This document shows, in pieces, positions 32,776 to 58,212 of a stretch of DNA of 64,000 nt (its first letter is position 1; each line of letters starts with the position of its first letter). The position numbers were made by a program, and so were the translations under genes. The stretch comes from Candidatus Poriferisodalis sp. (GTDB taxonomy: Bacteria > Actinomycetota > Acidimicrobiia > Acidimicrobiales > Poriferisodalaceae): contig CBDDDL010000002.1 of the NCBI GenBank assembly GCA_965226645.1, positions 667,147 to 731,146 on the forward strand, read 5' to 3'. The notes beneath the pieces are model-generated. The model had not been told where the DNA came from and made no database searches. It worked only from the letters and a program-made list of their open reading frames with translations.

Positions 32776-33549
32776 TCAGTGCGCAGGCGTGTCGGCGTCC
32801 GGTAAACGGCGCTCGTGCAGCTCAACCGGCTGCGCACGCGACTTGCGGTTGCGCTTCATCCGCAAGTTGAGCGCCTCCACCATCACGGCGAATCCCATCG
32901 CGAAGTAGATGTAGCCCTTCGGGATGTGGAACTCGGCGCCCTCGGCGACGAGTGACATACCGATGAGCAGCAGGAAGCTGAGCGCCAGCATCTTCACTGT
33001 CGGGTGACGGCTCACGAACCGCATCACCGGGCCCGACGACCACAGCATCACCCCGACGGCGATGACGACGGCTGCGATCATCACGCCGACCTGTTCGGCC
33101 ATGCCGACCGCGGTGATCACCGAGTCGAGGCTGAACACCAGATCGAGCAGCAGGATCTGCACGATGACCTTGGCGAACGAGCCGGCCGCGCCCCCGGAGG
33201 CACCGTGGGCATCATCGCCTTCGAGCTTGTGATGGATCTCGAACGTGGACTTGCCCAGCAGGAACAGTCCGCCGCCGAACAGGATCAGGTCTCTGCCCGA
33301 CAGCTCGTGGCCGAATACCGAGAACAGCGGTGCGGTCAACCGCACGATCCACGCGATGCCCAGCAGCAGCAGCACCCGCATCCCCATCGCCAGCGACAGG
33401 CCAACGACTCGCGCTCGATCTGCCTGCTCGCCGCCCAGTCGGCCCGCCAAGATCGAGATGAAGATGACGTTGTCGATACCGAGGACGATCTCAAGCACCG
33501 TCAGCGTTGCCAGCGAGATCCAGATTTCAGGATTCGATATCCACTCCAC
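32776..33549 (-). CDS. TerC/Alx-family integral membrane protein
   Basis: ..LTVLEIVLGIDNVIFISILAGRL.. and a second DNV-like half. 257 aa. Confidence 0.85.
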   Translation of the reverse strand: MEWISNPEIWISLATLTVLEIVLGIDNVIFISILAGRLGGEQADRARVVGLSLAMGMRVLLLLGIAWIVRLTAPLFSVFGHELSGRDLILFGGGLFLLGKSTFEIHHKLEGDDAHGASGGAAGSFAKVIVQILLLDLVFSLDSVITAVGMAEQVGVMIAAVVIAVGVMLWSSGPVMRFVSRHPTVKMLALSFLLLIGMSLVAEGAEFHIPKGYIYFAMGFAVMVEALNLRMKRNRKSRAQPVELHERRLPDADTPAH

Positions 33550-33591
33550 GGGCGCCCACGCTAGAGCGAGCGCGCTACCCGCCCGTCGCGC

Positions 33592-35028
33592 TCAGCGTGT
33601 GCGCGGCGGATGGCGACGCTGCAGAATTGCCCGGCAATGTCCTCGGTGCCTAGCTGCAAGCCCGCAGCGCTGGCCAGTCGAGCGCACCCGCAGTGGGCAT
33701 CGCTCCCACCGCGCCCCGAGATCGACGCTCTCGACGGCGCCCGAGAAGTCGTCGCCGTCATTGGTGGGCAGAAACGGATCTCCTGCGATCTGGTCGAGGA
33801 GTTGACGTGCGTTGTGCGGATCGCCCATTGTCGAGGACATGACGTCGTACATTTCGAAAATGCGGTCGGCGTCGTAGGCCCGCAGGCGCGGACCGACGCG
33901 GCGGCTCCGTGTAATGCCAGCTTCAGTCAGACGACGAAGCGCTTCTGCGCACCGCCGCGGCGAAAAACCGGATTCCGACGCGAGGTTCTCTGGCGTCAGC
34001 GAAGGTTGCGACGCCAGCAGGTTCACTGCAGCCAGAGCCACAGAGCGCCCGGTGCGCTGCCCGACACGCTCGCGCCAACGGTCCTGCAGGCGTGAAACGG
34101 CATCCGCATATAAGCTCGCCGCTTCGCAGGACTGACTCACCGCTGTGCTGACGACTTCGAGCAACGGGATCACGGCTGCGGATCTGTGCGCGTCATCGGG
34201 CGCTCCGACGTAGCTCTGATATGCAGCGAGCGATCGCAGGTAGGCATCACGGTTCTGCGACAGGGCCAAGCTGATGGGCGGCATGAACCCCTCCGAAACG
34301 CACCGATGCTTCAACGCGGCATACAGGAGCGTCCGGCCCGTACGGCCGTTGCCATCGCCGAATGGATGAATCGTCTCGAATTGAGCGTGGGCCACCACGG
34401 CTTGCAGAATTGGCGAGTGATCGCCAGCTCGCAGATATGCGACGAGATCCTCCATGAGCGGCGGGCACTCATCGGGCGGCGGCGGCACGAAGTCGCCATC
34501 GAGCGGATGCCAGTCATTGCCCCCGATCCAGTTCTGCGTCGTCTTCAAAACGCCGCCGAGTCCCGGATTCGGGGACGAGTTCATGAGCACGCGATGGGCA
34601 TCGCAGAGCAACTCGACAGTCAACGCCGCCGGCTGGGCGAGGATGCGCAGAGCTTCTGCGGTTGCTTCGATGTTGCCAATCGCCTCGCCGACATGGCCCC
34701 GACGATGAGGTGGGGAAGCAGACGCCTCGGCAATCAACGCGTGCACGACCCGCCGAGCTTGCGGCGTCACTCCCTCGATACGCGACGAGCCAAGCGACTC
34801 CGCCCAGAAGAACATGGCGACCGAAGCTGAATCTGGCGCAAGCACTGAAGCCGTCGCAACCAGTTGGCGCTCGGCATCAGCAACGAATGCCGCCACATCG
34901 GCTGGCAGCAGTGGATGCCAGCCGGTCAGACGGTGAGGGACATAGGCGAGAAATGTGCCCAGCCGCCGGTCGACAGCCCGTGGCGCCGCCGGATTTCCTG
35001 GCCAGGACTCAGTGCGAAGGAAGCCCAT
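33592..35028 (-). CDS. Fic-family protein (AMPylase/filamentation-induced by cAMP family)
   Basis: Canonical Fic motif HPFGDGNGRTGRTLL. 478 aa with N- and C-terminal extensions. Confidence 0.85.
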   Translation of the reverse strand: MGFLRTESWPGNPAAPRAVDRRLGTFLAYVPHRLTGWHPLLPADVAAFVADAERQLVATASVLAPDSASVAMFFWAESLGSSRIEGVTPQARRVVHALIAEASASPPHRRGHVGEAIGNIEATAEALRILAQPAALTVELLCDAHRVLMNSSPNPGLGGVLKTTQNWIGGNDWHPLDGDFVPPPPDECPPLMEDLVAYLRAGDHSPILQAVVAHAQFETIHPFGDGNGRTGRTLLYAALKHRCVSEGFMPPISLALSQNRDAYLRSLAAYQSYVGAPDDAHRSAAVIPLLEVVSTAVSQSCEAASLYADAVSRLQDRWRERVGQRTGRSVALAAVNLLASQPSLTPENLASESGFSPRRCAEALRRLTEAGITRSRRVGPRLRAYDADRIFEMYDVMSSTMGDPHNARQLLDQIAGDPFLPTNDGDDFSGAVESVDLGARWERCPLRVRSTGQRCGLAARHRGHCRAILQRRHPPRTR

Positions 35029-35085
35029 GATGGTGACCCTCTTCCGCTGATGGGAGTGCCGCTTACCGCGCCAGTTCTTGTCGTA

Positions 35086-35116
35086 TTTGACGCGTAAACA
35101 ATCTTACCGTGTCAAA
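35086..35116. promoter_or_regulatory. Near-palindrome TTTGACGCG-N13-CGTGTCAAA, 58-88 bp upstream of the fic start; candidate operator
   Basis: Inverted repeat seen directly in the fic upstream region. Confidence 0.3.
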
Positions 35117-35165
35117 TGCAACAGCTACATGACGCAGCAACGGTGGTCGTCGCCGCGGGTCGCAT

Positions 35166-36116
35166 TCATTCCTCGCTCCGATGCTCAACGGAATCTTGGG
35201 CGGCCCACCAGGCATGGAGGCGGCGGAGTACCTCGTCGTCGCCCAGCTCGCCTTCAGTTCGGCGCAGCTCCAGCAGGAACTTCATGGCATGGCCCACCTC
35301 GGGCCCGGGTGCCAAGCCCAAGTGGGCCATCACCTCGTCGCCGTTCATCTCAGGACGCACCTCGGCGACCGCCTGCTCTCGGGCCAACCGGGAGATACGA
35401 ACCTCGAATCGGTCGAGCGCATCGTGCAGCGCCTGGATCCGCTTCACATTGCGCGATGTGCAGTCGCTGCGCACCATGTCGTTCAGGTCGCCCAACAGCA
35501 GTCCGGCGTCACGGGCGTAGCGCCGTACTGCGGCATCGGTCCAACCGGTGTCATACCCCTTGAAGCGGCCCGACAGGTGCACCAACCGGGCGACCTCGTC
35601 GGTCAGCTCGCGGTTGTAGCCCATCTGCGGCATGCGGCGGCGAGTCATCTTTGCGCCTACGGCCTCGTGGTTGCGGAACGTCACCCCGCCGTGGGAAAAC
35701 GACCGCGTCAGCGGCTTGCCGATGTCGTGAAAGAGCGCTCCGAGGCGCACCCGCAGCCGCGGCGGGCTTTGGGCCACGACGGCGATCGTGTGCGCCAGCA
35801 CATCCTTGTGGCGGTGGATCGGATCCTGCTCGAGCGCCAGCGCCGGCAGCTCGGGCAGGTGCTCATCGGCCCAGCCGCTGTCGACCAGCTCCCACAAGCC
35901 CTGGCGCGGATCGTCGACCACCAGGACGCTGTTGAGTTCGTCGCAGGGCAGCGCGGCACCGTCGTCTAACGCCAGCTCGTCGAGAGCGAGTTCATCGACG
36001 CTGTCTGGATCGTCAGCGCCCGGCGCGCTGTGCGGCGCGCGGTGCGGGGTGCTCATCCCACCATGATGCAGTGCTGCGAGCGCCCGTCCAACCATGTTTT
36101 GCGGGAGTTTTGCCAT
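35166..36116 (-). CDS. HD-domain protein resembling the C-terminal half of CCA-adding enzyme / poly(A) polymerase (no nucleotidyltransferase head evident)
   Basis: ..LPELPALALEQDPIHRHKDVLAHTIAV.. ..LGALFHDIGKP.. HD motif. The N-terminal 80 residues are low-complexity. Divergent from dnaE. Confidence 0.6.
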   Translation of the reverse strand: MAKLPQNMVGRALAALHHGGMSTPHRAPHSAPGADDPDSVDELALDELALDDGAALPCDELNSVLVVDDPRQGLWELVDSGWADEHLPELPALALEQDPIHRHKDVLAHTIAVVAQSPPRLRVRLGALFHDIGKPLTRSFSHGGVTFRNHEAVGAKMTRRRMPQMGYNRELTDEVARLVHLSGRFKGYDTGWTDAAVRRYARDAGLLLGDLNDMVRSDCTSRNVKRIQALHDALDRFEVRISRLAREQAVAEVRPEMNGDEVMAHLGLAPGPEVGHAMKFLLELRRTEGELGDDEVLRRLHAWWAAQDSVEHRSEE

Positions 36117-36210
36117 CCAGCGGCGCGCACGCCTCCGCGATACCGGGATCGCGCCTGCGGCGGGTCTATGTTCGACAAACGGGTCGCTTCGGACAACTTC
36201 AAGGAGCAGC

Positions 36211-39200
36211 GTGGCAGCGTCGTTCGTTCACCTGCACACTCACACCGAATACTCGCTGCTCGACGGCGCGGCGCGTGTCAATGAGGTGGTAGCAGCCGCC
36301 GCCGCGGACGGCCAGCCCGCACTGGGCATCACCGACCACGGGAACATGTACGGCGTCCTGGACTTCTACCGGGCCTGCAAGGCGCATGACATCACGCCGA
36401 TCATCGGCACCGAGGCCTACATGGCACTCGAGAGCCGCCACGAGCGTCCCGTCCGAAATCGCGCCAAGAACAGCAAAGTCGACGATTCGGGCGACGACGG
36501 CGAGGGCGAAAAGCTCTACTACCACCTGACCCTGCTGGCGGCGAACGACACCGGCTACCGGAATCTGCTCAAGCTCGCCAGCACGGCGTTCTTGGAGGGC
36601 TACTACTACAAGCCCCGCATGGACTGGGAGATGTTCGCCCAGCACGCTGACGGCCTGATCGCCACCACGGGGTGCCTGGGAAGCGTCGTGCAGCAGGCCC
36701 TGCTTGCCGGCGACTACGACGAGGCCCGACGCCGGGCGGGTCGGCTGCAGGACATCTTCGGACGCGACTCGCTGTACGTCGAGCTGCAGGACCACGGCAT
36801 CGACGCGCAGCACGCCTGCAACCCGCAGCTGCTGCAGATTGCCCAAGAACTCGGCGCTCCGCTGCTCGCCACCAACGACCTGCACTACACACATCGGGGC
36901 GATGCGCTCGCTCATGACGCGCTGCTGTGCGTGCAGACCGGTGCGTTGCGCAGCGATCCAGACCGCTTCAAGTTCCACGGCGACCAGCACTATCTGAAGA
37001 CCGCCGCAGAGATGCGGACGCTGTTCGACGCTCATCCCGACAGCTGTAACAACACGCTGGCCATCGCCGAGCGCGCCGATGTGAACATCGAGTTCGGCCG
37101 CATGCTGTTGCCGCACTTCGACGTGCCCGCCCCCCACGCCGACGCCGACGCCTACCTCCATCACTTGGCATTCGAAGGAGCGACGAACCGCTGGGGCCCG
37201 AATCTGCCGGCCAGCACCACTCAACAGCTCGCCTACGAGCTGCGCGTCATCTCCGACATGGGCTTCAGCTCGTACTTCCTCATCACCTGGGATCTCATCC
37301 GCCATGCCCGCGAGAACGGCATCCGCGTCGGGCCCGGACGAGGGTCGGCAGCGGGCTGCGCGGTGGCGTACTGCCTGCGCATCACCGACCTCGACCCCAT
37401 CCACTATGGGCTGGTGTTCGAGCGGTTCCTGAACCCGGCGCGCATCTCGATGCCCGACATCGACATCGACTTCGACGACCGCTACCGCGACGAGATGATC
37501 CACTACACGGCCCAGAAGTACGGCACCGATCACGTGGCACAGATCATCACGTTCTCCACGATCAAGGCCCGGGCCGCCGTGCGAGATGCCGCCCGAGTGC
37601 TGGGCAAGCCGTACGCGCTGGGCGACCGTGTCTCCAAGGCCATGCCACCGCTCATCATGGGCCGCGACACCCCTCTGGGCGCCTGTTTTGAACGCGACGA
37701 AAAGTATGCCGACGGTTACGCCGCAGCGGCTGAGCTGCGCGACATGTACGCACTCGACGACGACGTGCGCGAGGTCGTCGATGTGGCCCGCGGGCTAGAG
37801 GGGCTCATCCGTCAGGACTCGGTGCATGCCGCCGCCGTGGTGATCAGCCCCCAGCCGCTCACCGACTACCTGCCCATCCAGCGCAAGCCCGAGGCAGGCA
37901 CCGATCCCGACGAGGCACCCATCGTCACCCAGTTCGACATGGGCGGGGTGGAAGACCTCGGCTTGCTGAAGATGGACTTCCTGGGCCTGCGGACGCTGTC
38001 GATCATCGACGAGTGCGTGCGCCTCATCGAGCGACGCACGGGCTCGACACTCGACATCGACGCAGTGCCGCTCGATGACCCAGCCACGTTCAAGCTGCTG
38101 TGCGCCGGGGACACCATGGGCGTGTTCCAGCTGGAATCCGCGCCAGTTCGATCGCTGCTGCGCTCGATGCAGCCCAATCAGTTCGAGGACATCTGCGCGC
38201 TGGTGGCGCTATACCGGCCGGGCCCCATGGCAGCCGATATGCACAACAGCTACGCCCACCGCAAGAACGGCCGCCAGCCCGCCGATCCGCCGCATCCGGA
38301 TCTGGCCGAACTGCTCGACGAGACCTACGGGCTGATGATCTACCAAGAGTCGATGATGCGGGTGGCACAGGAGATCGCGGGCTACTCCATGGCCGAAGCC
38401 GACGACCTGCGCAAGGCGTGCGGCAAGAAGAATCGAGCCCAGATCGCCGAGCACCGCGCCAAGTTCATCGCCGGCACCGATGCGAAGGGGTACGGCGAGG
38501 CGCTGGGAGAGCAACTGTTCGGGATCATCGAGCCGTTCGCGGATTACGCCTTCAACAAGAGCCACGCCTTTGCCTACGGGCTGATCGCGTACCAGACGGC
38601 GTACTTGAAGGCCAACTGCCTCACCGAGTTCCTAGCTGCCGTGCTGACTGGCTCCAAGCGCAACATTGAAAAGGCGGGCGTGTACCTCACCGACTGTCGC
38701 CAGCACGGCATCGAGGTGCGCGTGCCCGACATCAACGTCTCCGAAATGGATTTCGCGACCGACGGGGATGCGATCCCGTTCGGGTTGTCGGCGGTGCGCA
38801 ACGTGGGCGAGAAGGTGGCCGAGCCGATCATCGCCGAGCGCAGCGCCAACGGCCCCTTCGCCGACTTCAACGACTTCTGCGAGCGGATGCCACGCGAGGT
38901 GCTGAACCGCAGGTTCGTGGAGTCGCTCATCAAGGCCGGCGCTTTCGAGACATGCGGCCACACCCGCGCCGGTCTGCTCGACGTGTTCGACCGCATCATC
39001 GAGGCTGCCTTGCGGCGCCGTGCCGAGGCCGAGGCGGGACTGCAGTCGATGTTCGGCGGAGCGAACGTCGGCGGTGTCGAATTCGACGACCGGATCGACG
39101 TGCCCAACATCACCGCCGACGAACGCACCACGCTGGTGTGGGAGAAGGAGCTGCTCGGGCTGTACGTGTCGGATCACCCACTGCGCGGCGGCGAGGCCCA

Positions 39201-39744
39201 GCTGCGGCGCGCCACCGACTGCACCATTAGCGGGCTCGGCGACCTGCCGTCGAACCCCGACGGCGGACAGCAGTCGGTGACCATCGGCGGCGTCGTGCAC
39301 AACTTCCAGCGGCGCTTCACCCGCAGCGGCGAGCCCATGGCCCGCTTCACGCTCGAGGACACCGAAGGCTCCATCGAGGTGACGGTGTTTCCCAAGGCCA
39401 TGGCCGAAGCCGGCGACCTCCTCGCCGAAGACGCCGTCGTGCTGGTGCGCGGCCGTCCGGACCGGCGAGGCGAGGGCGAGACGGCATTCCTCGCGAACGA
39501 GCTTCTCCCGATCGACCTGCGCAGGGGACCGGCACCGCTATGGCTGAACGTCGAGCGCGTCGATATGGACGAGGACTGGCTGGTCTCGTTCGAGAAGATG
39601 CTGGCCTCCCATCCCGGCGATGCGCCCGTGCACTTGCGCGTCGGAGACCGGCTGGTGAAGCTGCCGGAGTCGCGATGGGTGGACGCTGGCGCCCTCGCAG
39701 GACCACTGCGCGAGATTCTCGGCGCCGACGCCGTGCGCACGTAA
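36211..39744 (+). CDS. dnaE: DNA polymerase III alpha subunit (DnaE1)
   Basis: PHP start ..SFVHLHTHTEYSLLDGAARV.. AAGGAG Shine-Dalgarno 4 nt upstream of GTG. The track ORF starts 39 codons earlier. Full-length pattern to ..C-terminal OB. Confidence 0.95.
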   Translation: MAASFVHLHTHTEYSLLDGAARVNEVVAAAAADGQPALGITDHGNMYGVLDFYRACKAHDITPIIGTEAYMALESRHERPVRNRAKNSKVDDSGDDGEGEKLYYHLTLLAANDTGYRNLLKLASTAFLEGYYYKPRMDWEMFAQHADGLIATTGCLGSVVQQALLAGDYDEARRRAGRLQDIFGRDSLYVELQDHGIDAQHACNPQLLQIAQELGAPLLATNDLHYTHRGDALAHDALLCVQTGALRSDPDRFKFHGDQHYLKTAAEMRTLFDAHPDSCNNTLAIAERADVNIEFGRMLLPHFDVPAPHADADAYLHHLAFEGATNRWGPNLPASTTQQLAYELRVISDMGFSSYFLITWDLIRHARENGIRVGPGRGSAAGCAVAYCLRITDLDPIHYGLVFERFLNPARISMPDIDIDFDDRYRDEMIHYTAQKYGTDHVAQIITFSTIKARAAVRDAARVLGKPYALGDRVSKAMPPLIMGRDTPLGACFERDEKYADGYAAAAELRDMYALDDDVREVVDVARGLEGLIRQDSVHAAAVVISPQPLTDYLPIQRKPEAGTDPDEAPIVTQFDMGGVEDLGLLKMDFLGLRTLSIIDECVRLIERRTGSTLDIDAVPLDDPATFKLLCAGDTMGVFQLESAPVRSLLRSMQPNQFEDICALVALYRPGPMAADMHNSYAHRKNGRQPADPPHPDLAELLDETYGLMIYQESMMRVAQEIAGYSMAEADDLRKACGKKNRAQIAEHRAKFIAGTDAKGYGEALGEQLFGIIEPFADYAFNKSHAFAYGLIAYQTAYLKANCLTEFLAAVLTGSKRNIEKAGVYLTDCRQHGIEVRVPDINVSEMDFATDGDAIPFGLSAVRNVGEKVAEPIIAERSANGPFADFNDFCERMPREVLNRRFVESLIKAGAFETCGHTRAGLLDVFDRIIEAALRRRAEAEAGLQSMFGGANVGGVEFDDRIDVPNITADERTTLVWEKELLGLYVSDHPLRGGEAQLRRATDCTISGLGDLPSNPDGGQQSVTIGGVVHNFQRRFTRSGEPMARFTLEDTEGSIEVTVFPKAMAEAGDLLAEDAVVLVRGRPDRRGEGETAFLANELLPIDLRRGPAPLWLNVERVDMDEDWLVSFEKMLASHPGDAPVHLRVGDRLVKLPESRWVDAGALAGPLREILGADAVRT

Positions 39745-39853
39745 ATTGGGCATCGAACTTTGAAGCGAAGCCCCTAGCCTTGCCCAATGGTCGTGACCGC
39801 GGCCGTTTCATCGGTGGCACCACCCGCCGAAGCGCAGTTCACCTGGAGTGCTC

Positions 39854-40048
39854 ATGAGCGACGGCGATACCCGGAAAGTCGACGAGAAGTCGCTCAAGGA
39901 CCCGGCCAAGATGATGGTCCCGTTCGCGAAGTTCAAGAGCTTCCAGCGGTCCGATCAGATCTGGGTGATCTGCGGCATCCTGTTCCTGATCATTTTGATG
40001 AACGTCGTCTTCTACAACGGGACCGGCCCTGTAACCCCAGCGCCATGA
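39854..40048 (+). CDS. Small hydrophobic protein (64 aa, one TM)
   Basis: MSDGDTRKVDEKSLKDPAKMMVPFAKFKSFQRSDQIWVICGILFLIILMNVVFYNGTG.. High GC3. Lies between dnaE and thrS. Confidence 0.4.
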   Translation: MSDGDTRKVDEKSLKDPAKMMVPFAKFKSFQRSDQIWVICGILFLIILMNVVFYNGTGPVTPAP

Positions 40049-40086
40049 GCCGACGCCCGTGAGCCGACGCCCGTGAGTTTGGGCCG

Positions 40087-42156
40087 ATGAGTCCCGCCGG
40101 CGAGGCCGCAGCCACCAGCGCCGCCGGCGAGGCCGTCACCACCGTGGTGCTGCCCGACGGGCAGTCCCGCGAACTCCCCGCCGGCGCAACGGGCGCCGTC
40201 CTTGCCGCGTCGCTGGGGCGCCGTGCCGCCAAGGACGCTCTGATCGCGGTCGCCGACGGCGAGCAATTCGATCTGAATCGGCCGCTGCCCGACGGCGCGG
40301 CGGTGTCGCTGGTGTTTCCGGCCTCCGACGATGGCCTCGAAGTGTTGCGTCACTCCACCGCGCACGTTCTGGCCCAAGCGGTGCTGCGGCTGTATCGGGG
40401 GGCCACGTTCTCGATCGGGCCCCCGATCACCGACGGCTTCTATTACGACTTCGATCTCGGCACCGACGACTCGGGCACAGCGCGGACGTTCTCTGACGAC
40501 GACCTCGAGGCGATCGACGCCGAGATGCGCTCCATCGTGGCTGCCCGCCAGCCGTTCATCCGCGCCGAGGTGGACCGAGCTACCGCCGATGAGCTGTTCG
40601 CGCAGCATCCCTACAAGATCGAGATCCTCGACGGTGAGGCCGACGACCCGACGTCGGGTCCCACCGGCGGGGTGATCACCACCTACCGGAACACCGACGA
40701 GTTCGTGGATCTGTGCCGCGGCCCCCACGTGCCCGACACCGGACGGCTGGGTCACTTCAAGCTGATGCGGGTGGCTGGTGCGTACTGGCGCGGCGACGAG
40801 AAGCGCCAGATGCTGCAACGTATCTACGGCACGGCGTGGGGCTCTGCCGCCGACCTGGCTGCGCACCTCGAACGGCTCGAAGAGGCCGCCAAACGTGACC
40901 ACCGTCGTTTGGTCAACGAGCTGGACCTGCTCAGCTTTCCCTCCGAGCTCGGCGGCGGACTGGCCGTGTGGCATCCCAAGGGCTCGGTGATCCGCAAGAT
41001 CATGGAGGATTACAGCCGGGATCGGCACGAGTCGGGCGGCTATCAGTTCGTCTACACGCCGCACCTCGCCAACGCTCGGCTATTCGAGACCTCCGGGCAC
41101 CTGGACTTCTACGCCGAGGGCATGTACCCGCCGATGGAGATGGACAACGGCGTCTACTACCCCAAACCGATGAACTGCCCGATGCACTGCCTGATCTTCG
41201 GCCAGCGCCAGCGTTCCTACCGTGAGCTGCCGCTGCGGCTGTTCGAACTGGGCACCGTGTACCGCTACGAGCGGTCGGGGACGCTGCACGGGCTGATGCG
41301 GATCCGTGGGTTCACCCAGGACGACAGCCACCTGTACATGGCACCCGAGCACTTGGCCGACGAGATCGAACGGCTGCTGGATTTCGTGCTGTCGGTGCTG
41401 GGCGCGTTCGGCTTCGAGGATTTCACCTTCAAGCTGTCGACGCAGGATCCCGACAAGTTCGTGGGTAGCGCCGACGGCTGGGACCGGGCGACGGCGGCGC
41501 TGCGGGAGGCCTTGGACCGGCGCGGCCACGACTACGTCGAGGCCGAGGGCGAGGCGGCGTTCTACGGGCCGAAGATCGACATCGACGTGCAGGACGCCAT
41601 CGGGCGGTCATGGCAGCTGTCGACGATTCAGCTCGACTTCAACCTGCCGGAACGGTTCGACCTGCGATACACCGGCGCTGACGGTGAACTGCACCGGCCG
41701 ATCATGATCCACCGGGCGCTCTTTGGCGCGATCGAGCGGTTCTTCGGTGTGATGGTGGAGCACTACGGGGGTGCGTTCCCGCCGTGGCTGTCACCGGTGC
41801 AGGCGGTGGTGCTGGGCGTGCGGGCGGATCACGACGCGTTTGCCTCGGAGGTGGTGGCGCAGCTGGCCGAGAAACGTTTTCGGGCCGAGATGGTGCCGGC
41901 GGATGACCCACTGGGGGCGCGGATCCGTCGGGCCAAGCTCGAGAAGGTGCCCTACGTGCTGGTGGTGGGCGACGACGATGTGGCTGCGGGCACGGTGGGC
42001 GTGAATCCGCGTGGCCATCCGGTACGGCGCGACGTGCCGATCGATGAATTCATCGCGCAGCTGGCCGATGAGGTGGAAAGCAAAGCTGTTGACGTTGGCG
42101 GCTCAAGTGATACGGCCGCCGATGTGAGCGCTGCGGTGGCCGCGGCGAGCGACTGA
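40087..42156 (+). CDS. thrS: Threonine--tRNA ligase
   Basis: TGS domain, ..HSTAHVLAQAV.. editing motif, class II core (..FRVAGAYWRGDEK.., ..RGFTQDDSHLY..), anticodon-binding C-terminus. Confidence 0.95.
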   Translation: MSPAGEAAATSAAGEAVTTVVLPDGQSRELPAGATGAVLAASLGRRAAKDALIAVADGEQFDLNRPLPDGAAVSLVFPASDDGLEVLRHSTAHVLAQAVLRLYRGATFSIGPPITDGFYYDFDLGTDDSGTARTFSDDDLEAIDAEMRSIVAARQPFIRAEVDRATADELFAQHPYKIEILDGEADDPTSGPTGGVITTYRNTDEFVDLCRGPHVPDTGRLGHFKLMRVAGAYWRGDEKRQMLQRIYGTAWGSAADLAAHLERLEEAAKRDHRRLVNELDLLSFPSELGGGLAVWHPKGSVIRKIMEDYSRDRHESGGYQFVYTPHLANARLFETSGHLDFYAEGMYPPMEMDNGVYYPKPMNCPMHCLIFGQRQRSYRELPLRLFELGTVYRYERSGTLHGLMRIRGFTQDDSHLYMAPEHLADEIERLLDFVLSVLGAFGFEDFTFKLSTQDPDKFVGSADGWDRATAALREALDRRGHDYVEAEGEAAFYGPKIDIDVQDAIGRSWQLSTIQLDFNLPERFDLRYTGADGELHRPIMIHRALFGAIERFFGVMVEHYGGAFPPWLSPVQAVVLGVRADHDAFASEVVAQLAEKRFRAEMVPADDPLGARIRRAKLEKVPYVLVVGDDDVAAGTVGVNPRGHPVRRDVPIDEFIAQLADEVESKAVDVGGSSDTAADVSAAVAAASD

Positions 42157-42169
42157 GGCTCGGGCGGGC

Positions 42170-43345
42170 GTGCGGGCGCTGATTTTCGAGCGCAAGGAAT
42201 TGCGATTCGCGGCGGCGATGGCAGCGGGCAAGCTGAAGCCTGGCTCGGGTGCAGGCGTGGGCCCACTGCGTTTGACCGAGATGGATCCGCCGGAGCTGCC
42301 GGGCGGCGACTGGCAGTACGTGCGCACGGCGCTGTCGGGCATCTGCGGCTCGGATCTTGCGACGGTGGACGGGAAGGTGTCGCGCTATTTCGAGTCGCTG
42401 GTGTCGTTCCCGTTCGTGCCAGGCCATGAGGTGGTGGGTCACATCGACGACGGCTCCCGGGTGGTGCTGGAACCGGTGCTGGGGCCCGAAGCGCACGGTG
42501 TTGCACCGCCGTGGCCCGACGCGGCGCCTGCCGACGGCGACGACTACGGCCACTTGATCGGCGGCGTGATCGAAGCCGGGTTGCAGACAGGTTCGTGTTC
42601 GTCGACTGGTGGCGGTTGGTCCGACACGTTCGCCGCACACCGGTCGCAACTGCATTCGCTGGGGGCGCTGGGTCCGGCGGAACTGTCAGACGAGGCGGCG
42701 GTGATGATCGAGCCGACCGCGGCGGGCATTCATGCTGCGTTGCGGTCGGGAGTGACCGAGGGCGGCACAGCGGCGGTGATTGGCGCCGGCACGATGGGAT
42801 TGGTTGCGGTTGCCGCGCTGCGTCAACTGACCGGCGTGGCGGCGATCGTGGTGGGCGCCCGCTACAGCCATCAGCGCCGGCTGGCCCGTGAGCTGGGGGC
42901 CGACTTGGCGGTGTCGCCCGACGAGTTGGGACGGGCCGTGCGCCGTGCCGCAGGCACGAGGGTGATCGGGCAGACGCTGGGCTCGGGAACGCACGTGACG
43001 ATCGATGCAGTCGCCTCGTCGTCGTCGCTGACTGATGCCATTGCAATCACCCGACCGCGGGGTCGGGTGGTGGTGCTGGGCATGCCTGCGAACGTGGAAC
43101 TGAACCTGTCGGCGTTGTGGCACCGCGAGACCGAGTTGGTGGGGGCCTACTGCTACGGCACCGAGCCAGCACTGGACGGGGGTCACACCTTCGAGGCCGC
43201 GATCAAGCTGGTGCGCGACTGCGACCTAGGCCGACTGGTCTCTGCGTTGTACCCGCTGGAGGAGTACCGGGCTGCGCTGGAGCACGCCGCGAGTGCTGGT
43301 GCGCGCGGCTCGACCAAGATTGCGTTTGATTTGCGCGAGGACTGA
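42170..43345 (+). CDS. Zinc-binding medium-chain dehydrogenase/reductase (threonine/sorbitol dehydrogenase-like)
   Basis: ..LSGICGSDLATVDG.. ..PFVPGHEVVGHI.. Rossmann ..AVIGAGTMGLVAVA.. Confidence 0.8.
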   Translation: MRALIFERKELRFAAAMAAGKLKPGSGAGVGPLRLTEMDPPELPGGDWQYVRTALSGICGSDLATVDGKVSRYFESLVSFPFVPGHEVVGHIDDGSRVVLEPVLGPEAHGVAPPWPDAAPADGDDYGHLIGGVIEAGLQTGSCSSTGGGWSDTFAAHRSQLHSLGALGPAELSDEAAVMIEPTAAGIHAALRSGVTEGGTAAVIGAGTMGLVAVAALRQLTGVAAIVVGARYSHQRRLARELGADLAVSPDELGRAVRRAAGTRVIGQTLGSGTHVTIDAVASSSSLTDAIAITRPRGRVVVLGMPANVELNLSALWHRETELVGAYCYGTEPALDGGHTFEAAIKLVRDCDLGRLVSALYPLEEYRAALEHAASAGARGSTKIAFDLRED

Positions 43346-43703
43346 AGTCGTTTCGTGCGAGCGGCGCCCGAGTCGTATTCGCTTGCAATACAATTACCGC
43401 CGTGGAGCGCCCATTCGACGTGGACCTCCTCGACGACCATGACCCGTTCGAAATCACCGATCAGCTGCCACATTTGCACAAGCACGGAATGCTCGGCGTG
43501 TCATACATCGTTGAAGTCTGACAGAACAGACCGCTCTTCTACCCGGCGCGACCTCCCGCACACTGGATCATGGTTGCGGAGGTCAACGGTGACGTGCTGG
43601 CGGTCCCGCTCGCACCATCAAAGTCCGGTGACTCAACTAAGTGTCGGCCGATTGGCTGCTACGAGGCACCCCGGTACCTGACAGCTCAATACATGGAGGA
43701 CCG

Positions 43704-43940
43704 ATGAACACTGAGAGCATGTCGCCTGCTGAGGAATACGAGTTCTATAGCCGGCCGGAAAACCTGCGACCCCAGGGGCCACCACGACGCCGCGTGACCA
43801 CCCTGTCCGACCCGATCGCGGTGCGCTTCTCGCCGCAGGTGCTCGAACAGGTGAAAGCAGCGGCGGCGGCAGATGACCGCTCGGTGTCTTCGTGGGTTCG
43901 CCGCGCAGTCGATAACGCCTTGCAAGAATCATCCGCCTAG
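43704..43940 (+). CDS. Ribbon-helix-helix (CopG/Arc-type) DNA-binding protein
   Basis: GGAGGA Shine-Dalgarno. ..RRRVTTLSDPIAVRFSPQVLEQVKAAAAADDRSVSSWVRRAVDNAL.. is an RHH pattern. It lies in a lower-GC 0.6-kb insert. A 45-codon upstream ORF ends in ATGA overlap with its start. Confidence 0.65.
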   Translation: MNTESMSPAEEYEFYSRPENLRPQGPPRRRVTTLSDPIAVRFSPQVLEQVKAAAAADDRSVSSWVRRAVDNALQESSA

Positions 43941-43970
43941 ACGACACGGTCCCCAACCAACGCCGGCTCC

Positions 43971-44012
43971 CGCGGCTCAACCATGATTGCCTTCGACCTG
44001 CGCGAGAGCTGA
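43971..44012 (+). other. Orphan copy of the last 13 codons plus stop of the ADH gene (..RGSTMIAFDLRES*)
   Basis: 34 of 42 nt identical to 43304..43345 (..RGSTKIAFDLRED*). The differences are mostly synonymous third-position changes. The orphan copy has the host-like higher GC3. Confidence 0.6.
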
Positions 44013-44226
44013 TCTCCTCAGTCCGCCCGGGGGCGTCTCGCCTCGGAACGGACAGCCCGTGACGGATCCGCCTGGTCAGCTTCGATCTGGGCCACGAGCT
44101 CGGGATGCCGCAGCAGAGCGGCTTCATGTGCCGACGTCACGGCGGCGGGAGTTCGGTCGGCTTCTTCGTTCACATAGCAAGGACTGCCAGATCGAAGGAA
44201 GAGGAGACTGACCGGTCGTCAACGCA

Positions 44227-46536
44227 ATGGACATTGCCCACAGCCGGTCGGCGTGTTGCACCCCCCGCTGTAGGTTCGCCGCCATGAACGACGAGCAGTA
44301 TTGGATGCAGCGACTTGACGAGTATTGCAAACAGTTGGCCCGCGAGAGCGTCAAGGCCAAGACTGTCAGTGTCTACCGAAACGTCACACGACTGTGGATC
44401 GACTATTGCCTCGAGCGCGGGCACGATCCGTCACCGAACGACCATGACGTGGTCGAACGGTTTCTCGATTCCCGAGATGGCATCGCTGAGACGACGAGGT
44501 CGACCTACACAAGCGATCTCCGTCGGTGGTTCAACTACATGAACGAGTCGTCATCGCAGTTCGACGTCGAAACCTGGATGCAGCGACTTGAGGCCTACAT
44601 CAAGTGGCGAAGTGAAGTCGGTGGACGGAGCGGCGCAGGCGCCATGAGACCAACGCAGGAAAATCTGCGTTCGATCCTGGGTCGATGGGCACGCTACGCC
44701 TGCAAGAACAGGATCGATCCTGCCACCTACGATGAAGCCGCGATCGCGCAGTTCTGCCATGAACAGGGCGGCATCAAGGAATCAACCCGTGGCGATTACA
44801 GACGGCACATTCGCAGGTGGTGCGAGCGGTTGCCAGAATTCGAGCGCGCTCGGCCTGAGCGTCTACCAAAGCTCTTTGCCGAGTTTCGCCGGTCCAGATA
44901 CCCGACGCCTGACGACGAAGAGAGCAAACTCGCGCGGGAACGATTCCAGCGAATCTTGGAATCACTACCGTCGCTCGCGTTCGAAGACCGGGGGCAACTC
45001 AAGCAAGTTTGGAGTAGGGGCAAGAACACTTACGGGAGTCCGGGCCAGGTTGTTCATCTGAATTCGTACCTAAACCAGGCCTCCAGTGCGCAATGGGTCG
45101 AACTTCGAGACCTCCTCACTGGGCTGTGCTTCGGGGGAGGCGACCTCGCCTCTCGAATCGACACGGCCATGAGCCAGAAGGGCATCGGCTCCGCGACTGC
45201 GACTCGATTGGCTGCAATCTGCCACCCTGAGCGGTTCATTCCCAACTACGTGCTCGCGAGAAGCAGCAGCGACAACTGGCGCGGCAAGCTGGAGATGATC
45301 GAGCTCGTGGACGAGCTTGGACTCCTTGACGTCGCTGGGACACGCGAGGCACAAGAGATCCACCTGCTCCATCGTGAACATGGCGGCTCGGGTGCCGTAG
45401 TGATGCGCGCGAACGACCTTCTCCTCGAATCGCTCCGTCCTTACTTCACGGACGACGATGTCGTCGACACGTGGGGTATCCGAACATTTCTGTATTGGTT
45501 GGAGGAGAACTACGGCGATAGCACCGAGACGGTCGATCAATGGATTGACGACGAGGACCTCGTGAAATTGGCGGACGAGCTGTTGTGCGAGGTGGACTTC
45601 CTCCAGGACATCCTGGCCCTGCTTGATGACAAGGGGCAGGTGATCCTGTACGGACCGCCGGGAACGGGCAAGACGTACTTCGCGCGGTCGCTTGCTGTCA
45701 GGTTGGCGCTGTACGAGGACGAGGGCGACGATGCGTATTCACTGGTGCAATTCCATCCGGCGTACTCGTATGAGGACTTCTTCGAAGGCTTCCGCCCTCG
45801 GATCGATGACAACGGGCAGATGACGTACGAGTTGACGCCGGGTCCGCTGATTCGGCTCGCCCAACGCGCGGAGGAGCATCCGGACGAACTGCACGTCATG
45901 GTCATCGACGAGATCAACCGGGCGAACCTGCCGAGAGTGTTGGGGGAACTGCTTTACCTGCTGGAGTACCGCGACGAGGAGATCCAGACGCAATACCGGC
46001 CCGACGACACTTTCTCTCTGCCATCAAACCTTTGGTTCATTGGCACGATGAATACGGCCGACCGGTCCATCGCGCTGATCGACGCGGCGATGCGGCGACG
46101 GTTCCACTTCGTGCCGTTCTTCCCCAACCATGGGCCGACGGCGGGTCTCCTGCGCCGGTGGATGCAGCGCAATTCACCGGAACAGGAATGGGTCGCCGGC
46201 CTGGTTGACAAGGTGAACAGAGACCTGGCCGAGCAGATGGGTGGTGATCACTCGCTGATCGGGCCGAGCCACTTTATGAAGAGCGACCTCGACAAGGAAA
46301 GCCTGCGGCGCATCTGGGAGTACAACATCGAACCGCTCATCGAGGACCAGCTGTTCGGTCGTCAGGAAGCGATCGAGAGCTTCCGGTTCGGCAGCGTCTG
46401 GCGGCGCTACGGATCCGGAGCGACTTCGTCTGGTGCGCCGCCGGCTGAGCCTGACGACCAACCGCCTGACCCCGCGGATGAAGCAGGGAACCTCGCAGGT
46501 GAGAGCGAGGGCGCTGTCGACAAGGGCGACGCGTAA
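44227..46536 (+). CDS. McrB-family AAA+ GTPase homologue with an atypical ~430-aa N-terminal module
   Basis: C-terminal half: ..GQVILYGPPGTGKTYFARSLA.. ..LHVMVIDEINRANL.. ..FIGTMNTADRSIALIDAAMRRRFHFV.. N-terminal region: two tandem segments resembling recombinase SAM-like core-binding domains, plus an HhH-like GIGSATATRLAA segment. Lower GC3 than neighbours. An alternative start is M20 (MNDEQYW) at 44284. Confidence 0.8.
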   Translation: MDIAHSRSACCTPRCRFAAMNDEQYWMQRLDEYCKQLARESVKAKTVSVYRNVTRLWIDYCLERGHDPSPNDHDVVERFLDSRDGIAETTRSTYTSDLRRWFNYMNESSSQFDVETWMQRLEAYIKWRSEVGGRSGAGAMRPTQENLRSILGRWARYACKNRIDPATYDEAAIAQFCHEQGGIKESTRGDYRRHIRRWCERLPEFERARPERLPKLFAEFRRSRYPTPDDEESKLARERFQRILESLPSLAFEDRGQLKQVWSRGKNTYGSPGQVVHLNSYLNQASSAQWVELRDLLTGLCFGGGDLASRIDTAMSQKGIGSATATRLAAICHPERFIPNYVLARSSSDNWRGKLEMIELVDELGLLDVAGTREAQEIHLLHREHGGSGAVVMRANDLLLESLRPYFTDDDVVDTWGIRTFLYWLEENYGDSTETVDQWIDDEDLVKLADELLCEVDFLQDILALLDDKGQVILYGPPGTGKTYFARSLAVRLALYEDEGDDAYSLVQFHPAYSYEDFFEGFRPRIDDNGQMTYELTPGPLIRLAQRAEEHPDELHVMVIDEINRANLPRVLGELLYLLEYRDEEIQTQYRPDDTFSLPSNLWFIGTMNTADRSIALIDAAMRRRFHFVPFFPNHGPTAGLLRRWMQRNSPEQEWVAGLVDKVNRDLAEQMGGDHSLIGPSHFMKSDLDKESLRRIWEYNIEPLIEDQLFGRQEAIESFRFGSVWRRYGSGATSSGAPPAEPDDQPPDPADEAGNLAGESEGAVDKGDA

Positions 46537-54970: not shown

Positions 54971-55099
54971 CTGCACCTACGAGCGGTGGGCAGACAGAGG
55001 TCACGATGACAGACCGCATGTGTGAGACAAAAGCCGACAGCCGCTGGTTGCTTGAGTTCGGCAAGACCCTCGCAAGCGCGGATTCGTTCCAATCGGAGG

Positions 55100-56400
55100 T
55101 ATAGGAGGGGCGGCGAACTCCATCGGTGGATGCTCCTATGTTTGTCAACTCCCGGTCTGTGCGAGGTGTCGCTGGTAGCGTTCGGCGAGGTCGCGGTTGT
55201 GGATGATGCCTCTTTCGAGTTCGGATATCCGGTTGGGTGCGGCTCCGAGGGCTCGGGCTGTCTGGTGGATGGTGAGCCCTCGTTGGGTGCGGTGGCGGCG
55301 CAGGTCCGCTCCGTGGGCGACGTCGGGCGGGTCGATGATCAGCTTGTAGACCTCGCGTGCGATGTGGCGTTTGAGGCAGCGGAGTATCTCGCGTCGGGTC
55401 TTGCCCTCGGCGGTGAGGCGGGCGGCGTAGGCGATGCTGCGCTCGTCGACGCGCAGGCGGACCATCGCGATGCGCCACAGTGCGTTGTTGGCCTGGCGGT
55501 TGCCGCCGCGGTTGAGCCGGTGGCGCACCGTTCGGCCTGAGGACGCCTCGATGGGGCTGGTGCCGCACAGGGCGGCGAAGGACGCCTCGCTGCGCAGCCG
55601 CTCGGGGTTGTCGCCGGCGGCGACGAGCAGCGCGGCCGCGGTCTCCGCGCCGACGCCGCAAGCGCCCAGCAGCGCCGGGTTGGCTCGTTCGCACAGGCGG
55701 CGCAGCTCGGCGTCGAGGTGCTTGATCTCCGCGGTGAGAGCCTGGTGGCGGCGGGCCAGGGAGCGCAGCGCCCGCTTGGCCGCAGAGCGGACGAGATCAC
55801 CGTGTGTGCCGGGCCGCATCCGGGCGCAGGCGGCGACGGTGCGGGCGGTGTTCAGTGCCCGCAGGCGGTCTTTGACGGGCTCGGGGGCGGTCACGACGAC
55901 AGCGTCGATCTGGTTGGCGGCGACGGTGCGGGCCTTGACCGCGGAGCGGCGCGCCACACGCAGGGTCCTGATCGCCTCGACGCATCCGTCGGCGCTCTTG
56001 GGCACCACTGCGGCACTGCCGTTGAGCGCGGCCCGCGCCGCTGGCTCCGCGTCGACGGTGTCGGTCTTGCCGCGGCGGCGGCGCATCTGGCGGTTCGGGC
56101 GGTTCACATCGACGACGTCGACGCCGGCAGCCGTGAGGTGCCGGGCGAGGCCCGCGCCGTAGGAGCCGGTTCCCTCCACGCCGACGCGCTCGACGCTGCG
56201 GTGGCCGCCGAGCCATCCCAGCAGCGCCGTGTAGCCGGCGGTGTCCGCGTCGAACGCGGCGCTGCCCAAGACCCGTCCGGCGCCGTCGAGGACGGCGGCG
56301 ACATGGGTGTGCTTGTGGGTGTCGACCCCGCCGAATACGGCGGGGCGGTCCTGTGTCATGATGGTGATGCCTCCTTGTGGTCATCTCACTGTCGGGGGCG
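55100..56400. mobile_element. IS110-family insertion sequence (bounds approximate)
   Basis: Contains the IS110-type transposase gene 55145..56359. IS110 elements lack terminal inverted repeats, so the ends are not delimited here. Confidence 0.5.
55145..56359 (-). CDS. IS110-family (DEDD) transposase
   Basis: N-terminal ..VFGGVDTHKHTHVAAVLDGAGRVLG.. C-terminal ..GVGAETAAALLVAAGDNPERLRSEASFAALCGTSPIEASSGRTVRHRLNRGGNRQANNALWRIAMVRL.. Confidence 0.85.
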   Translation of the reverse strand: MTQDRPAVFGGVDTHKHTHVAAVLDGAGRVLGSAAFDADTAGYTALLGWLGGHRSVERVGVEGTGSYGAGLARHLTAAGVDVVDVNRPNRQMRRRRGKTDTVDAEPAARAALNGSAAVVPKSADGCVEAIRTLRVARRSAVKARTVAANQIDAVVVTAPEPVKDRLRALNTARTVAACARMRPGTHGDLVRSAAKRALRSLARRHQALTAEIKHLDAELRRLCERANPALLGACGVGAETAAALLVAAGDNPERLRSEASFAALCGTSPIEASSGRTVRHRLNRGGNRQANNALWRIAMVRLRVDERSIAYAARLTAEGKTRREILRCLKRHIAREVYKLIIDPPDVAHGADLRRHRTQRGLTIHQTARALGAAPNRISELERGIIHNRDLAERYQRHLAQTGS

Positions 56401-56639
56401 CCACCGGCCGCGACGGCGGACAGAACACTCACGGTGTGGCTTACAAGGCTCCTATCGGGTCACATCCGTCGGGCCGGTCGGTGCGCGCCCCGCCGACCAG
56501 ACAAAGCCGACAGATCCACCGCAGGGCACCACGAGGGGCCGGTTGCAACTCGGGTCAGACCCTCTCCTGCCGACAGGGCCCAACCATTATGAGTGTTGCA
56601 AGTGAACGGTCATGATGACCGTTGCGAACACATGCAGCC

Positions 56640-57631
56640 GACCGATGGAGGTGTCAGTATGGCAGCGAGGCTGAGTTTGGATGAGCGGGTGTTATCGAGT
56701 CGTCGCTCGGGACGGGCCGCAGCGTCGCGGACGTAGCGCAGCGGCTGGGCCGTGATCCGTCGACGGTGCATCGCGAGCTGGCCCGCTGCGCCGGGCGGGC
56801 GGGCTATGACGCCCGCTCGGCGCACGCGTCGGCATGCGCGAGGACGCGACGAGAGCGAACGCCCAAGCTGGCGGCCGATCGGGTGCTGGCCGCCGCGGTC
56901 GATGAGCGCTTGAAGCTGCGTGGTCCCCGCACGCGACCGCGGCGGACCTGCGCGAGGCGGGCATGAGCGTGTGCGCGGAGACGATCTATCGGGCGTGCTA
57001 CGCGAACGACGCGCGCAGCGGCCTGCCCGCCGGCACCTGGGCGAAGCTGCCGCGGCGCGCCCGGCGCCGTCGGCCGCGCAGCGTCGCGCAGGCCCAAAAG
57101 CCCAGCCCGCTGGGGGAATACCGGCCGATAGCCGACCGGCCCGACGACGTCGAGGACCGTATAGAGCCCGGCCACTGGGACCGCGACCTCATCGTCGGCA
57201 AAGCGAACCTCACCGCCGCGGTCACCCTCGCAGAGCGCACCAGCCGCTACACGGTCACCGCAGCGCTGCCCGACGGCTACGGCGCGCCCCAGGTCGCCGC
57301 CGCGGCCGCCGCGGCGCTGGGCCGCCAGCCCGCAGCGCTCGTGCGCAGCCTCACCTGGGACCAAGGCCGCGAGATGGCCCGCTGGGCCGACGTCGAGGCC
57401 GCGCTCGGCATCGAGGTGTTCTTCTGCGAGCCGCGCTCGCCGTGGCAGCGACCCACCAACGAGCAGACCAACGGACTGCTGCGCCGATGGCTCCCCAAAG
57501 GCACCAGCCTCGACATCGGACAACTGCGGCTCTCGGTCATCGAGGACAACCTCAACCACATGCCCCGCCGACTCCACCACTGGACATCAGCACACGACAT
57601 CTACACTCAACTCACTTGCAACCACCGGTAG
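56640..57631 (+). mobile_element. Degenerate IS30-family element (transposase carries at least one frameshift in its N-terminal HTH region)
   Basis: ORF 56963..57631 has the IS30 DDE core (..GHWDRDLIVGK.. ..LTWDQGREMA.. ..FFCEPRSPWQRPTNEQTNGLLRRWLPKGTSL..). The upstream HTH part (MAARLSLDERVL.. / ..VADVAQRLGRDPSTVHRELAR..) is spread over three frames. Confidence 0.65.
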
Positions 57632-58044: not shown

Positions 58045-58136
58045 GGAGTCAGAGTATCGCCCGGTGTCTTGGTGGAGGCTGCTGCGGTGCTGGGTCGTGG
58101 TTCTCGCCGTTGGCGCGGCTCGCACCGCATACCCGG

Positions 58137-58182
58137 GGCGCTGTGCGCCATCGGCGTGGCGCGGGTGACACACCCGGCGCGC
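58137..58182. repeat. 46-bp direct repeat, copy 2 (displaced aquaporin 3' end)
   Basis: Identical to 53904..53949. It lies 4.2 kb downstream, just before convergent hemB. Confidence 0.85.
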
Positions 58183-58212
58183 TAGCGGCTCGGCGGCGCT
58201 TCCGGCGGGCTG

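Follow-up and report, generated by a model that had tools for sequence, protein, structure and literature searches.

How does the end of an intact housekeeping gene come to stand twice on a chromosome, with a small operon of lower GC content held exactly between the two copies? The question is raised by a stretch of 64,000 nt (the window, to whose positions all coordinates refer unless a locus is named) from Candidatus Poriferisodalis sp. (GCA_965226645.1, contig CBDDDL010000002.1, positions 667,147-731,146 of the forward strand), in which the 3' end of a gene for a Zn-dependent alcohol dehydrogenase (ADH) is repeated behind a two-gene cassette resembling a toxin-antitoxin (TA) pair. The ADH locus was compared across nine related genomes; L-numbers denote homologous loci from other genomes or metagenome contigs, L025 being GCA_965215815.1. 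The best-matching ADH homologues carry Candidatus Poriferisodalis (Acidimicrobiia) names, and a literature search for 'Poriferisodalis' turned up no papers on the genus. The locus is the scar of an old, now integrase-less insertion rather than an active mobile element, and we tentatively read it, with a probability of roughly 45%, as the decayed remnant of a Campbell-type or attachment (att)-type insertion at a hot spot.

The ADH gene (42170-43345, + strand) is intact, with matches to Pfam ADH_zinc_N, ADH_N and related families, and it adjoins the threonyl-tRNA synthetase (ThrRS) gene in a DnaE-ThrRS-ADH order that is kept in all relatives. Its orthologues are 94-69% identical, and the proteins of all 120 best homologues (120/120) close with K[IV]AFDLR and 0-5 further, variable residues, the K being invariant. 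The gene-attached copy of the repeat (43289-43345, +) consists of the last 18 ADH codons and the stop codon (57 nt), and the displaced non-coding copy, hereafter the relic (43956-44012, +), is an ADH 3' end reading NAGSRGSTMIAFDLRES before its stop. An earlier, sequence-only reading of this DNA had reported two copies at 43304-43345 and 43971-44012, and both are there: the first is CGCGGCTCGACCAAGATTGCGTTTGATTTGCGCGAGGACTGA, encodes RGSTKIAFDLRED and a stop, and terminates ADH; the second is CGCGGCTCAACCATGATTGCCTTCGACCTGCGCGAGAGCTGA and would encode RGSTMIAFDLRES, also closed by a stop; 34 of their 42 bases are identical. Alignment with orthologous gene ends extends the homology to 57 nt, beginning NAGSRGST..., with 41/57 ungapped identities, against at most 32/57 in shuffles of the downstream 5 kb and 32 at the next best site of the window on either strand; a degenerate pattern fitting both copies finds exactly 2 sites in the window and 0 in 100 shuffles. 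The duplication of the ADH gene end is genuine. At the position of the invariant K the relic has M in the window and in L025 and R in L002, where, as in L003, the relic reads RGSTRISFDLRES before its stop; the K/M difference, first placed in the opening codon of the copy, falls in the fifth codon of 14. Right of the McrBC genes that follow the relic, a 3-mismatch pattern, a six-frame peptide scan allowing up to 4-5 mismatches and self-BLAST found no third copy, and an arrangement of tandem islands was rejected for that reason. The only matches with ADH on genome contigs, from distant Acidimicrobiia (50-71% identity), have no second ADH end within 10 kb.

What stands between the copies is an insert of 610 bp built as one compact operon, with 29 nt from the ADH stop to an operator-like motif and 15 nt from the last stop codon of the cassette to the relic. 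A foreign cassette of lower GC content does lie exactly between the ADH stop and the displaced gene end, as had been proposed, with 57-63% GC against 67-70% in the flanks; the low-GC island itself is not bounded by the copies, since it runs past the relic to about 47.9 kb. The left cassette end (43346-43401, +), identical to L025 at 55/56 positions, carries the palindrome GTATTCGCTTGCAATACAAT at 43375-43394 and the hexamer TACAAT 7 nt before a GTG start codon; the palindrome of this region may also be written GTATTCGCTTGCAATAC. Throughout the cassette family a palindromic motif, GTAnnCGnTTGTAATACAnT, occurs some 26-35 nt upstream of the toxin start, the strict pattern being present in 43/78 metagenome loci and close variants being visible in most others, and its conservation suggests a putative operator/promoter. 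Scans of 42.9-44.4 kb for Rfam/structured RNAs, terminators and generic sigma-70 promoters were negative.

The first cassette gene (43402-43707, +) would encode a toxin of about 101 aa with a BrnT-like predicted fold, and is interrupted by an in-frame TGA at 43519-43521. A 39-codon open reading frame (ORF; 43402-43521) and a 45-codon ORF (43570-43707) lie in one frame, split by this single TGA, and the latter, which had been taken for an upstream ORF of its own, is the C-terminal fragment of a 101-codon pseudogene. The read-through product of 101 aa has 169 homologues of about 100 aa, and P0241, an intact homologue in another Ca. Poriferisodalis genome, is 95% identical. The gene is a pseudogene, because the stop results from a TGG to TGA change at the nearly invariant Trp40 (W40*) and three other conserved positions are altered (F26H, R30M, D35Y). 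A structure model predicts a BrnT/RelE-type fold for the toxin; neither member of the pair matches Pfam BrnT or BrnA, or any PDB chain, in sequence, the toxin family has no Pfam model, and PADLOC has no model for either protein.

The second cassette gene (43704-43940, +), intact and 78 aa long, encodes an antitoxin-type protein with a putative Arc/CopG-like, YlcI/YnfO-type ribbon-helix-helix (RHH) fold, and its start overlaps the toxin stop in an ATGA, an overlap already recognised from the letters. Its profile matches all fall below cut-off, in Pfam to Arc, RHH_5, Antitox_RHH and BrnA_antitoxin (E = 0.022) and in NCBIfam to YlcI/YnfO (29.2 bits against a cut-off of 30). It has 145 homologues, and in 80/80 metagenome loci found via the toxin family the gene immediately after the toxin gene is an RHH homologue. 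The proposal that it is a Xis-like protein, an excisionase, was rejected in view of this obligate pairing: it is the antitoxin-type partner of a gene for a toxin of predicted BrnT-like fold. The cassette is best described as a putative type II TA pair of the BrnT/BrnA-like kind, as fold prediction and gene organisation suggest. Between the window and L025 the RHH gene differs by 7 synonymous and 0 nonsynonymous changes, and the toxin gene by 5 synonymous and 5 nonsynonymous ones, the nonsense codon included; the toxin gene is decaying while the RHH gene is still constrained by purifying selection. The relic also happens to be in frame with the RHH gene (43938-44012), such that read-through of the RHH TAG would add 23 codons up to the relic TGA; this shared frame is probably a coincidence (a 1 in 3 chance), inherited by L025.

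The distribution of these parts among relatives bears on the age of the event. L025 is colinear with the window over 33460-44151 and has ADH, an intact toxin gene, the RHH gene and the relic, without McrBC; L002 and L003 have ADH, an AHJR-like gene in the place of the toxin gene, RHH, the relic and an McrC remnant; in L106/L107 and L109 the ADH gene is followed by the operator, an internally deleted toxin gene and RHH, without a relic. A single ADH end is followed by unrelated genes in L004 (AHJR-like), L018 (AAA_14 ATPase), L019 (HNH and McrBC), L020 (IS1595) and L024 (RusA and AHJR-like). An uninterrupted ADH terminus, which the sequence-only reading had advised looking for, is thus available in five relatives, but their downstream DNA is not homologous to the flank of the relic, and none offers a clean empty site. 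The same reading had held that relatives with the duplicated end and no compositional shift would speak for ancient duplication; the duplicated end is found in L025 and L002, and the shift is present as well. As the cassette or its RHH gene occurs together with the relic in both, the duplication is old and common to three species-level lineages (window, L025 and L002), and comparison of these loci indicates an event inherited or recombined among species rather than a recent integration. A neighbour-joining tree from 5-7 kb of upstream DNA gives ((window,L004),(L025,(L106,L002))) with bootstrap values of 97-100%; L004, the closest relative of the window, is without cassette and relic, and the L025 genome is about 12% diverged from the window. 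L001 belongs to the same species as the window, has an identical ADH and differs only by an insertion sequence (IS) in the toxin pseudogene. That IS is 1.76 kb long (L001 11472-13233), encodes a DDE_Tnp_1_4 transposase of 436 aa and sits at window position 43637-43641, with junctions that overlap by 5 bp, the window being the IS-free allele.

The divergence between the window and L025 changes abruptly along the locus. It amounts to 8.5-12% in the body of ADH and 17.8% in the last 45 nt of the gene, falls to 3.4% over 43346-43700 and 2.6% over 43701-44012, and returns to 15.8% over 44013-44151. The unit 43346-44012 (667 nt) is therefore about 3% apart between the two genomes, in a tract that starts somewhere within 43332-43368 and stops somewhere within 43957-44026 (its left end being placed to within about 15-35 nt, its right end to within up to about 55 nt); it measures one repeat period and ends at equivalent places in both copies. 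Within it the relic is 56/57 identical between the two species, and the gene-attached copy, at 47/57, is as divergent as the host flanks or worse. Since the relic sits in the 3% block and the gene-attached copy diverges like the flanks, it is the relic that travels with the cassette; and since the K-to-M change is common to the window and L025, the copy had become a relic before the unit was last shared. Position 44012/13 is a breakpoint in the comparison with L002 too, with 88% identity on its left and 94% on its right, where identity to L025 is 83%. With the end of the relic marking a breakpoint in two comparisons (L025 and L002), cassette and relic together behave as a discrete, horizontally exchanged unit.

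An att-type or Campbell-type origin would account for this anatomy as follows. A compact two-gene TA cassette would have been inserted long ago at the extreme 3' end of ADH in a sponge-symbiont lineage, by a single crossover in which the ADH end of the chromosome met an ADH-end-like sequence carried by incoming DNA, probably a circle, leaving two direct copies of the last 57 nt of ADH, of which the upstream one completes the working gene and the downstream one is dead DNA. The recombinase may have been lost with the rest of the element or may have acted in trans. The cassette has since decayed, through the nonsense codon in the toxin gene of the window, the IS in the sister strain, the internal deletion in L106/L109 and the replacement in L002, and the 667-bp unit of cassette and relic has passed between species by recombination. 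On this account the junction of an excised circle is predicted to read ...GAGAGCTGA joined to AGTCGTTTCG..., and the restored single-copy site to read ADH ...CGCGAG[GA/AG]CTGA, then TCTCCTCAGTCC....

A crossover of the Campbell type is favoured because the insert spans exactly one repeat period, the repeat closes with the stop codon and the target gene is intact. The same origin is favoured by the 667-bp unit, in which species with flanks of 82-91% identity agree at about 97%, by a second case of the same kind in the window, and by the TA family's occasional position beside recombinases or att-like repeats elsewhere. The second case concerns an MIP/aquaporin gene (53277-53951), the last 50 nt of which (53900-53949) recur at 58134-58183 with 49/50 identities, just before a convergent ALAD gene. 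The island so delimited (53952-58133, 4.2 kb) carries a defence-type ATPase gene of the AriA/mad3/HEC-01A-like kind, split at 54314-54916 and 57610-58110, and no integrase is present in it; the site is clean and single-copy in L004 and L002, and L025, L106 and L109 too have an island at this place.

As to the TA family elsewhere, three unrelated metagenome contigs have direct repeats around the pair: L043 has a serine recombinase gene (339-977, -) adjacent to it and a 22-nt palindromic direct repeat (1072-1093 and 1700-1722) that comes 59 nt ahead of the toxin start and again 23 nt behind the RHH stop; in L045 the pair lies between repeats resembling tRNA 3' ends (285-310 and 1369-1394); and in L033 a 56-nt direct repeat surrounds it (2294-2349 and 3203-3258). 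The ORFs flanking 37 TA-family loci include 3 Resolvase and 3 Phage_integrase matches among 140. The idea that repeats surround every locus of the family was rejected, as only L033, L043 and L045 of the 59 others reach or exceed the null, and no TA locus of the metagenome set lies next to an ADH homologue. An att site based on a tRNA gene was ruled out, as neither the window nor the key loci contain tRNA genes.

Several observations weigh against an att-type origin. No tyrosine or serine recombinase lies between the copies, no integrase or resolvase was found at the ADH locus among the called genes of nine related loci, and the Pfam families listed for 47 window ORFs (25 of 44) include neither Phage_integrase nor Resolvase, the only families of recombination type among them being the IS110 and DDE_3 transposases; the absence of an integrase had been stated correctly from the start. 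The repeat-bounded unit is merely 667 bp long, and at least 55 of the 59 other TA-family loci have no flanking repeats above the null. On viral contigs no attP resembling the ADH end was found, the one IMG/VR match to a 20-mer of the ADH end being a chance match inside a phage tail gene, and the toxin occurs on just 1 IMG/VR contig and 1 plasmid. The region is moreover a mosaic of short inter-species recombination patches (for example 54197-55111), and it could in part be by chance, or through a preference for conserved sequence, that low-divergence patches end at the repeats. RHH alleles are 77-78% identical where the backbones are about 92% identical, and L106 and L109 have a divergent cassette allele at the same place without a relic.

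These counter-points are accommodated almost as well by a close rival, which we consider possible but on the whole doubtful, namely that the locus is the scar of homology-facilitated illegitimate recombination during island turnover and that a site-specific recombinase never took part. DNA donated by a relative would have been anchored by its homology in ADH, its other end being joined 57 nt upstream of the stop codon of the recipient, whose own gene end would thereby have been stranded behind the incoming cassette. Such a history suits a hypervariable hot spot in which every genome is different right after the ADH stop, and it draws on the extensive mosaicism with its short high-identity patches, on the discordance between RHH alleles and backbones, on the relic-free alleles of L106 and L109 and on the lack of a recombinase anywhere at the ADH locus; selection alone would explain why only ADH-preserving events survived. 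It is less at ease with two independent cases in the window, ADH and MIP, that share one geometry, a repeat of 50-57 nt closing with the stop codon, with a low-divergence unit shared with L025 that is one repeat period long and ends equivalently in both copies, and with a cassette joined with almost no extra DNA, as the 29 nt before the operator and the 15 nt after the RHH stop indicate. An att-type origin remains our preference, and a broader proposition, that small defence or TA cassettes move between Poriferisodalis species as units carrying the last ~50-57 nt of a host gene (ADH, aquaporin) and insert there, a trans-acting recombinase or host recombination making the joins, seems unlikely; such integrase-less exchange at gene 3' ends would be comparable in effect to the cassettes of integrons or of cis-mobilizable elements (CIMEs).

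Quite improbable is the version first put forward from the sequence, in which a recent site-specific integration supplied the low-GC3 (third-codon-position GC) gene end as attL, left the native end at attR and gave an element that could be mobilised in trans. The gene-attached copy does contain a run of rare codons, ATT GCG TTT GAT TTG (43319-43333), with host frequencies of 0.09, 0.36, 0.11, 0.23 and 0.11 and a joint host frequency of about 1e-4, and the relic has host-like codons, shares an ending in RES before the stop with the functional ADH of L106, and has lost the invariant K. The low-GC3 codons are however confined to the window lineage: L025, which has both cassette and relic, carries the host-like ATC GCC TTC GAC CTG in its gene-attached copy, as do L002, L106 and L004. 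The relic was, by its shared K-to-M change, no longer a gene end when the unit was last exchanged, its 56/57 identity between species against 47/57 for the gene-attached copy is the opposite of an element-supplied gene end with a displaced native one, and a pseudogenised toxin and an absent recombinase do not suit a recent arrival. The 'recent' and 'which copy is native' parts of that version are contradicted, and its phrase 'decayed remnant' describes the locus fairly. The two copies, reconstructed to their ancestral versions, are nearly identical except for the last codon, and since, in addition, the L106 ADH ends in RES as relics do, the original direction of the event is not recoverable.

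The rare-codon run corresponds to five synonymous changes (ATC>ATT, GCC>GCG, TTC>TTT, GAC>GAT and CTG>TTG, at 43321, 43324, 43327, 43330 and 43331) that are specific to the window lineage and fall within 11 nt, four of them replacing C with T in the coding strand. Possible causes are clustered deamination and conversion of a short tract by an unsampled source.

A target-site duplication by a transposase-like staggered cut, or a local tandem duplication followed by deletion, is highly improbable, for although a direct repeat flanks the insert and the ancestral copies were near-identical apart from the last codon, the unit holds no transposase, the inverted repeats listed by the repeat scan include none at the cassette ends, 57 nt is far above the 2-15 bp usual for transposon target-site duplications, and no relative has an intermediate allele with a longer downstream ADH fragment.

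Integrative elements are known to duplicate the 3' ends of protein genes, as do e14 and phage 21 in icd of E. coli and ICESt1/ICESt3 in fda of Streptococcus thermophilus, and CIMEs are their integrase-less, att-flanked derivatives. The ADH locus is like e14 and the elements of the ICE (integrative and conjugative element) type in that the direct repeat is made up of the final tens of bases of a housekeeping gene with its stop codon, the gene is intact and a cargo of lower GC lies between; it is like CIMEs in having no recombinase between the repeats, and like all of them in that related genomes have single-copy sites, here without a homologous downstream flank. The direct repeats of an att core, one of them in the 3' end of the target gene, are present (41/57 against the shuffle maximum of 32), and the recombinase of an integrative element is missing from the ADH locus. 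Unlike e14 and the ICE-type elements, no integrase accompanies the repeat, either at the locus or among the Pfam families listed for the window, the unit measures only 667 bp, and the element-borne copy is apparently the distal relic and not the copy that completes the gene; excision and att function are putative. The likeness to BrnT/BrnA, a TA system of the RelE/ParE superfamily, is one of predicted fold and gene organisation, not of sequence families: in both, two small co-oriented adjacent genes are kept as a pair (80/80 here), whereas the toxin gene of the window is inactivated.

A further parallel is offered by the type VI secretion system (T6SS) effector/immunity arrays of Vibrio cholerae, for which displaced gene 3' ends and sequential acquisition of modules are described and homology-facilitated illegitimate recombination is invoked (PMC5361080). 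As far as that description goes, a module there also arrives beside a conserved gene, older 3' fragments stay downstream and the locus is strain-variable; unlike those arrays, in which polymorphic toxin genes are diversified, a housekeeping dehydrogenase end is here merely duplicated. A DDE transposon or IS does not fit the unit, which has no transposase, no terminal inverted repeat among those listed and a repeat of 57 nt, in contrast to the 5-bp overlap at the IS of L001. An integron cassette finds no support either, with no integrase among the listed Pfam families and no structured-RNA match over 42900-44400, although no search aimed at attC was made.

The feature is a real but ordinary kind of genomic scar, and it leaves current concepts unchanged, its value being mainly descriptive. 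If the att-type reading is true, the locus would show how an integrative element ends up in the genome of a symbiont, with only an addiction module and two att copies left and with the toxin dying afterwards while the antitoxin-type repressor persists. Through several related genomes the locus also records a hot spot for defence islands, the left edge of which coincides to the base with a stop codon and in which a 667-bp unit is exchanged between species. The toxins, with more than 160 homologues of about 100 aa, a BrnT-like predicted fold and no Pfam model, make a candidate for curation as a family.

In Ca. Poriferisodalis, ADH borders a hypervariable hot spot of defence genes on the left, each genome differing directly after the ADH stop codon. 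In the window the relic is met by the N-terminally truncated remnant of a small AbrB/MazE-like gene (44021-44194, -), assigned by its sequence pattern, which converges on it with the two stop codons 5 nt apart; an AbrB-like gene flanks the relic in every relic-bearing genome. With the full-length 82-aa AbrB-like gene of L002 (12641-12889, -) as query, tblastn matches 66 aa in the window at 74% identity and, in L025, where the gene is truncated too, 43 aa at 84%, and in L106 the AbrB-like stop overlaps the RHH stop within CTAG. Next come McrB-like and McrC genes (44227-47880, +; Pfam and NCBIfam matches), the McrB-like protein being of 769 aa with an AAA_5 GTPase domain. With 57-63% GC they are a separate low-GC defence module right of the relic, outside the repeat-bounded unit; McrBC is absent in L025, reduced to an McrC remnant in L002 and represented by a homologous pair in L019. 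The long N-terminal region of McrB has Phage_int_SAM_1-like (SAM-like DNA-binding) matches, and its candidature as an integrase was rejected, as it has no catalytic domain.

Other features of the hot spot were noted in passing. The AHJR-like (PF18743) genes just downstream of ADH in L002 (11466-12326), L004 (11284-12030) and L024 (11655-12518) share DNA identity of just about 68%, far under that of the backbone. Downstream of McrC, a gene for 499 aa (48169-49668, -) is related to HNH-annotated genes of L019 and L025 and is inverted relative to L002, L004, L025 and L106; G-rich 42-nt repeats in three copies lie between McrC and this gene (47983-48190, with 49866-49934 noted along with the gene). 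A PIN and PhdYeFM-type TA pair (49852-50649, -) belongs to the same hot spot and is found in L001 and L106 too.

In the MIP island the ATPase gene is interrupted by an IS110-family transposase gene (DEDD_Tnp_IS110, Transposase_20; 55145-56359, -) and by a partial transposase-like ORF (56963-57631, +) judged IS30-like by eye, and a perfect 38-nt direct repeat (54860-54897 and 54933-54970) lies beside these transposases. The patch 54197-55111, compared with L025 15237-16078, is 0.9 kb long and 97-99% identical on a backbone of about 87%, and ends exactly at the IS110 insertion point, which suggests a recent inter-species recombination or an IS-associated transfer. Nearby, an 18-nt tandem repeat of more than 7 copies (52941-53131) forms the 3' end of an animal-haem-peroxidase-like gene (51275-53200) and encodes a (TDTGSD)n tail.

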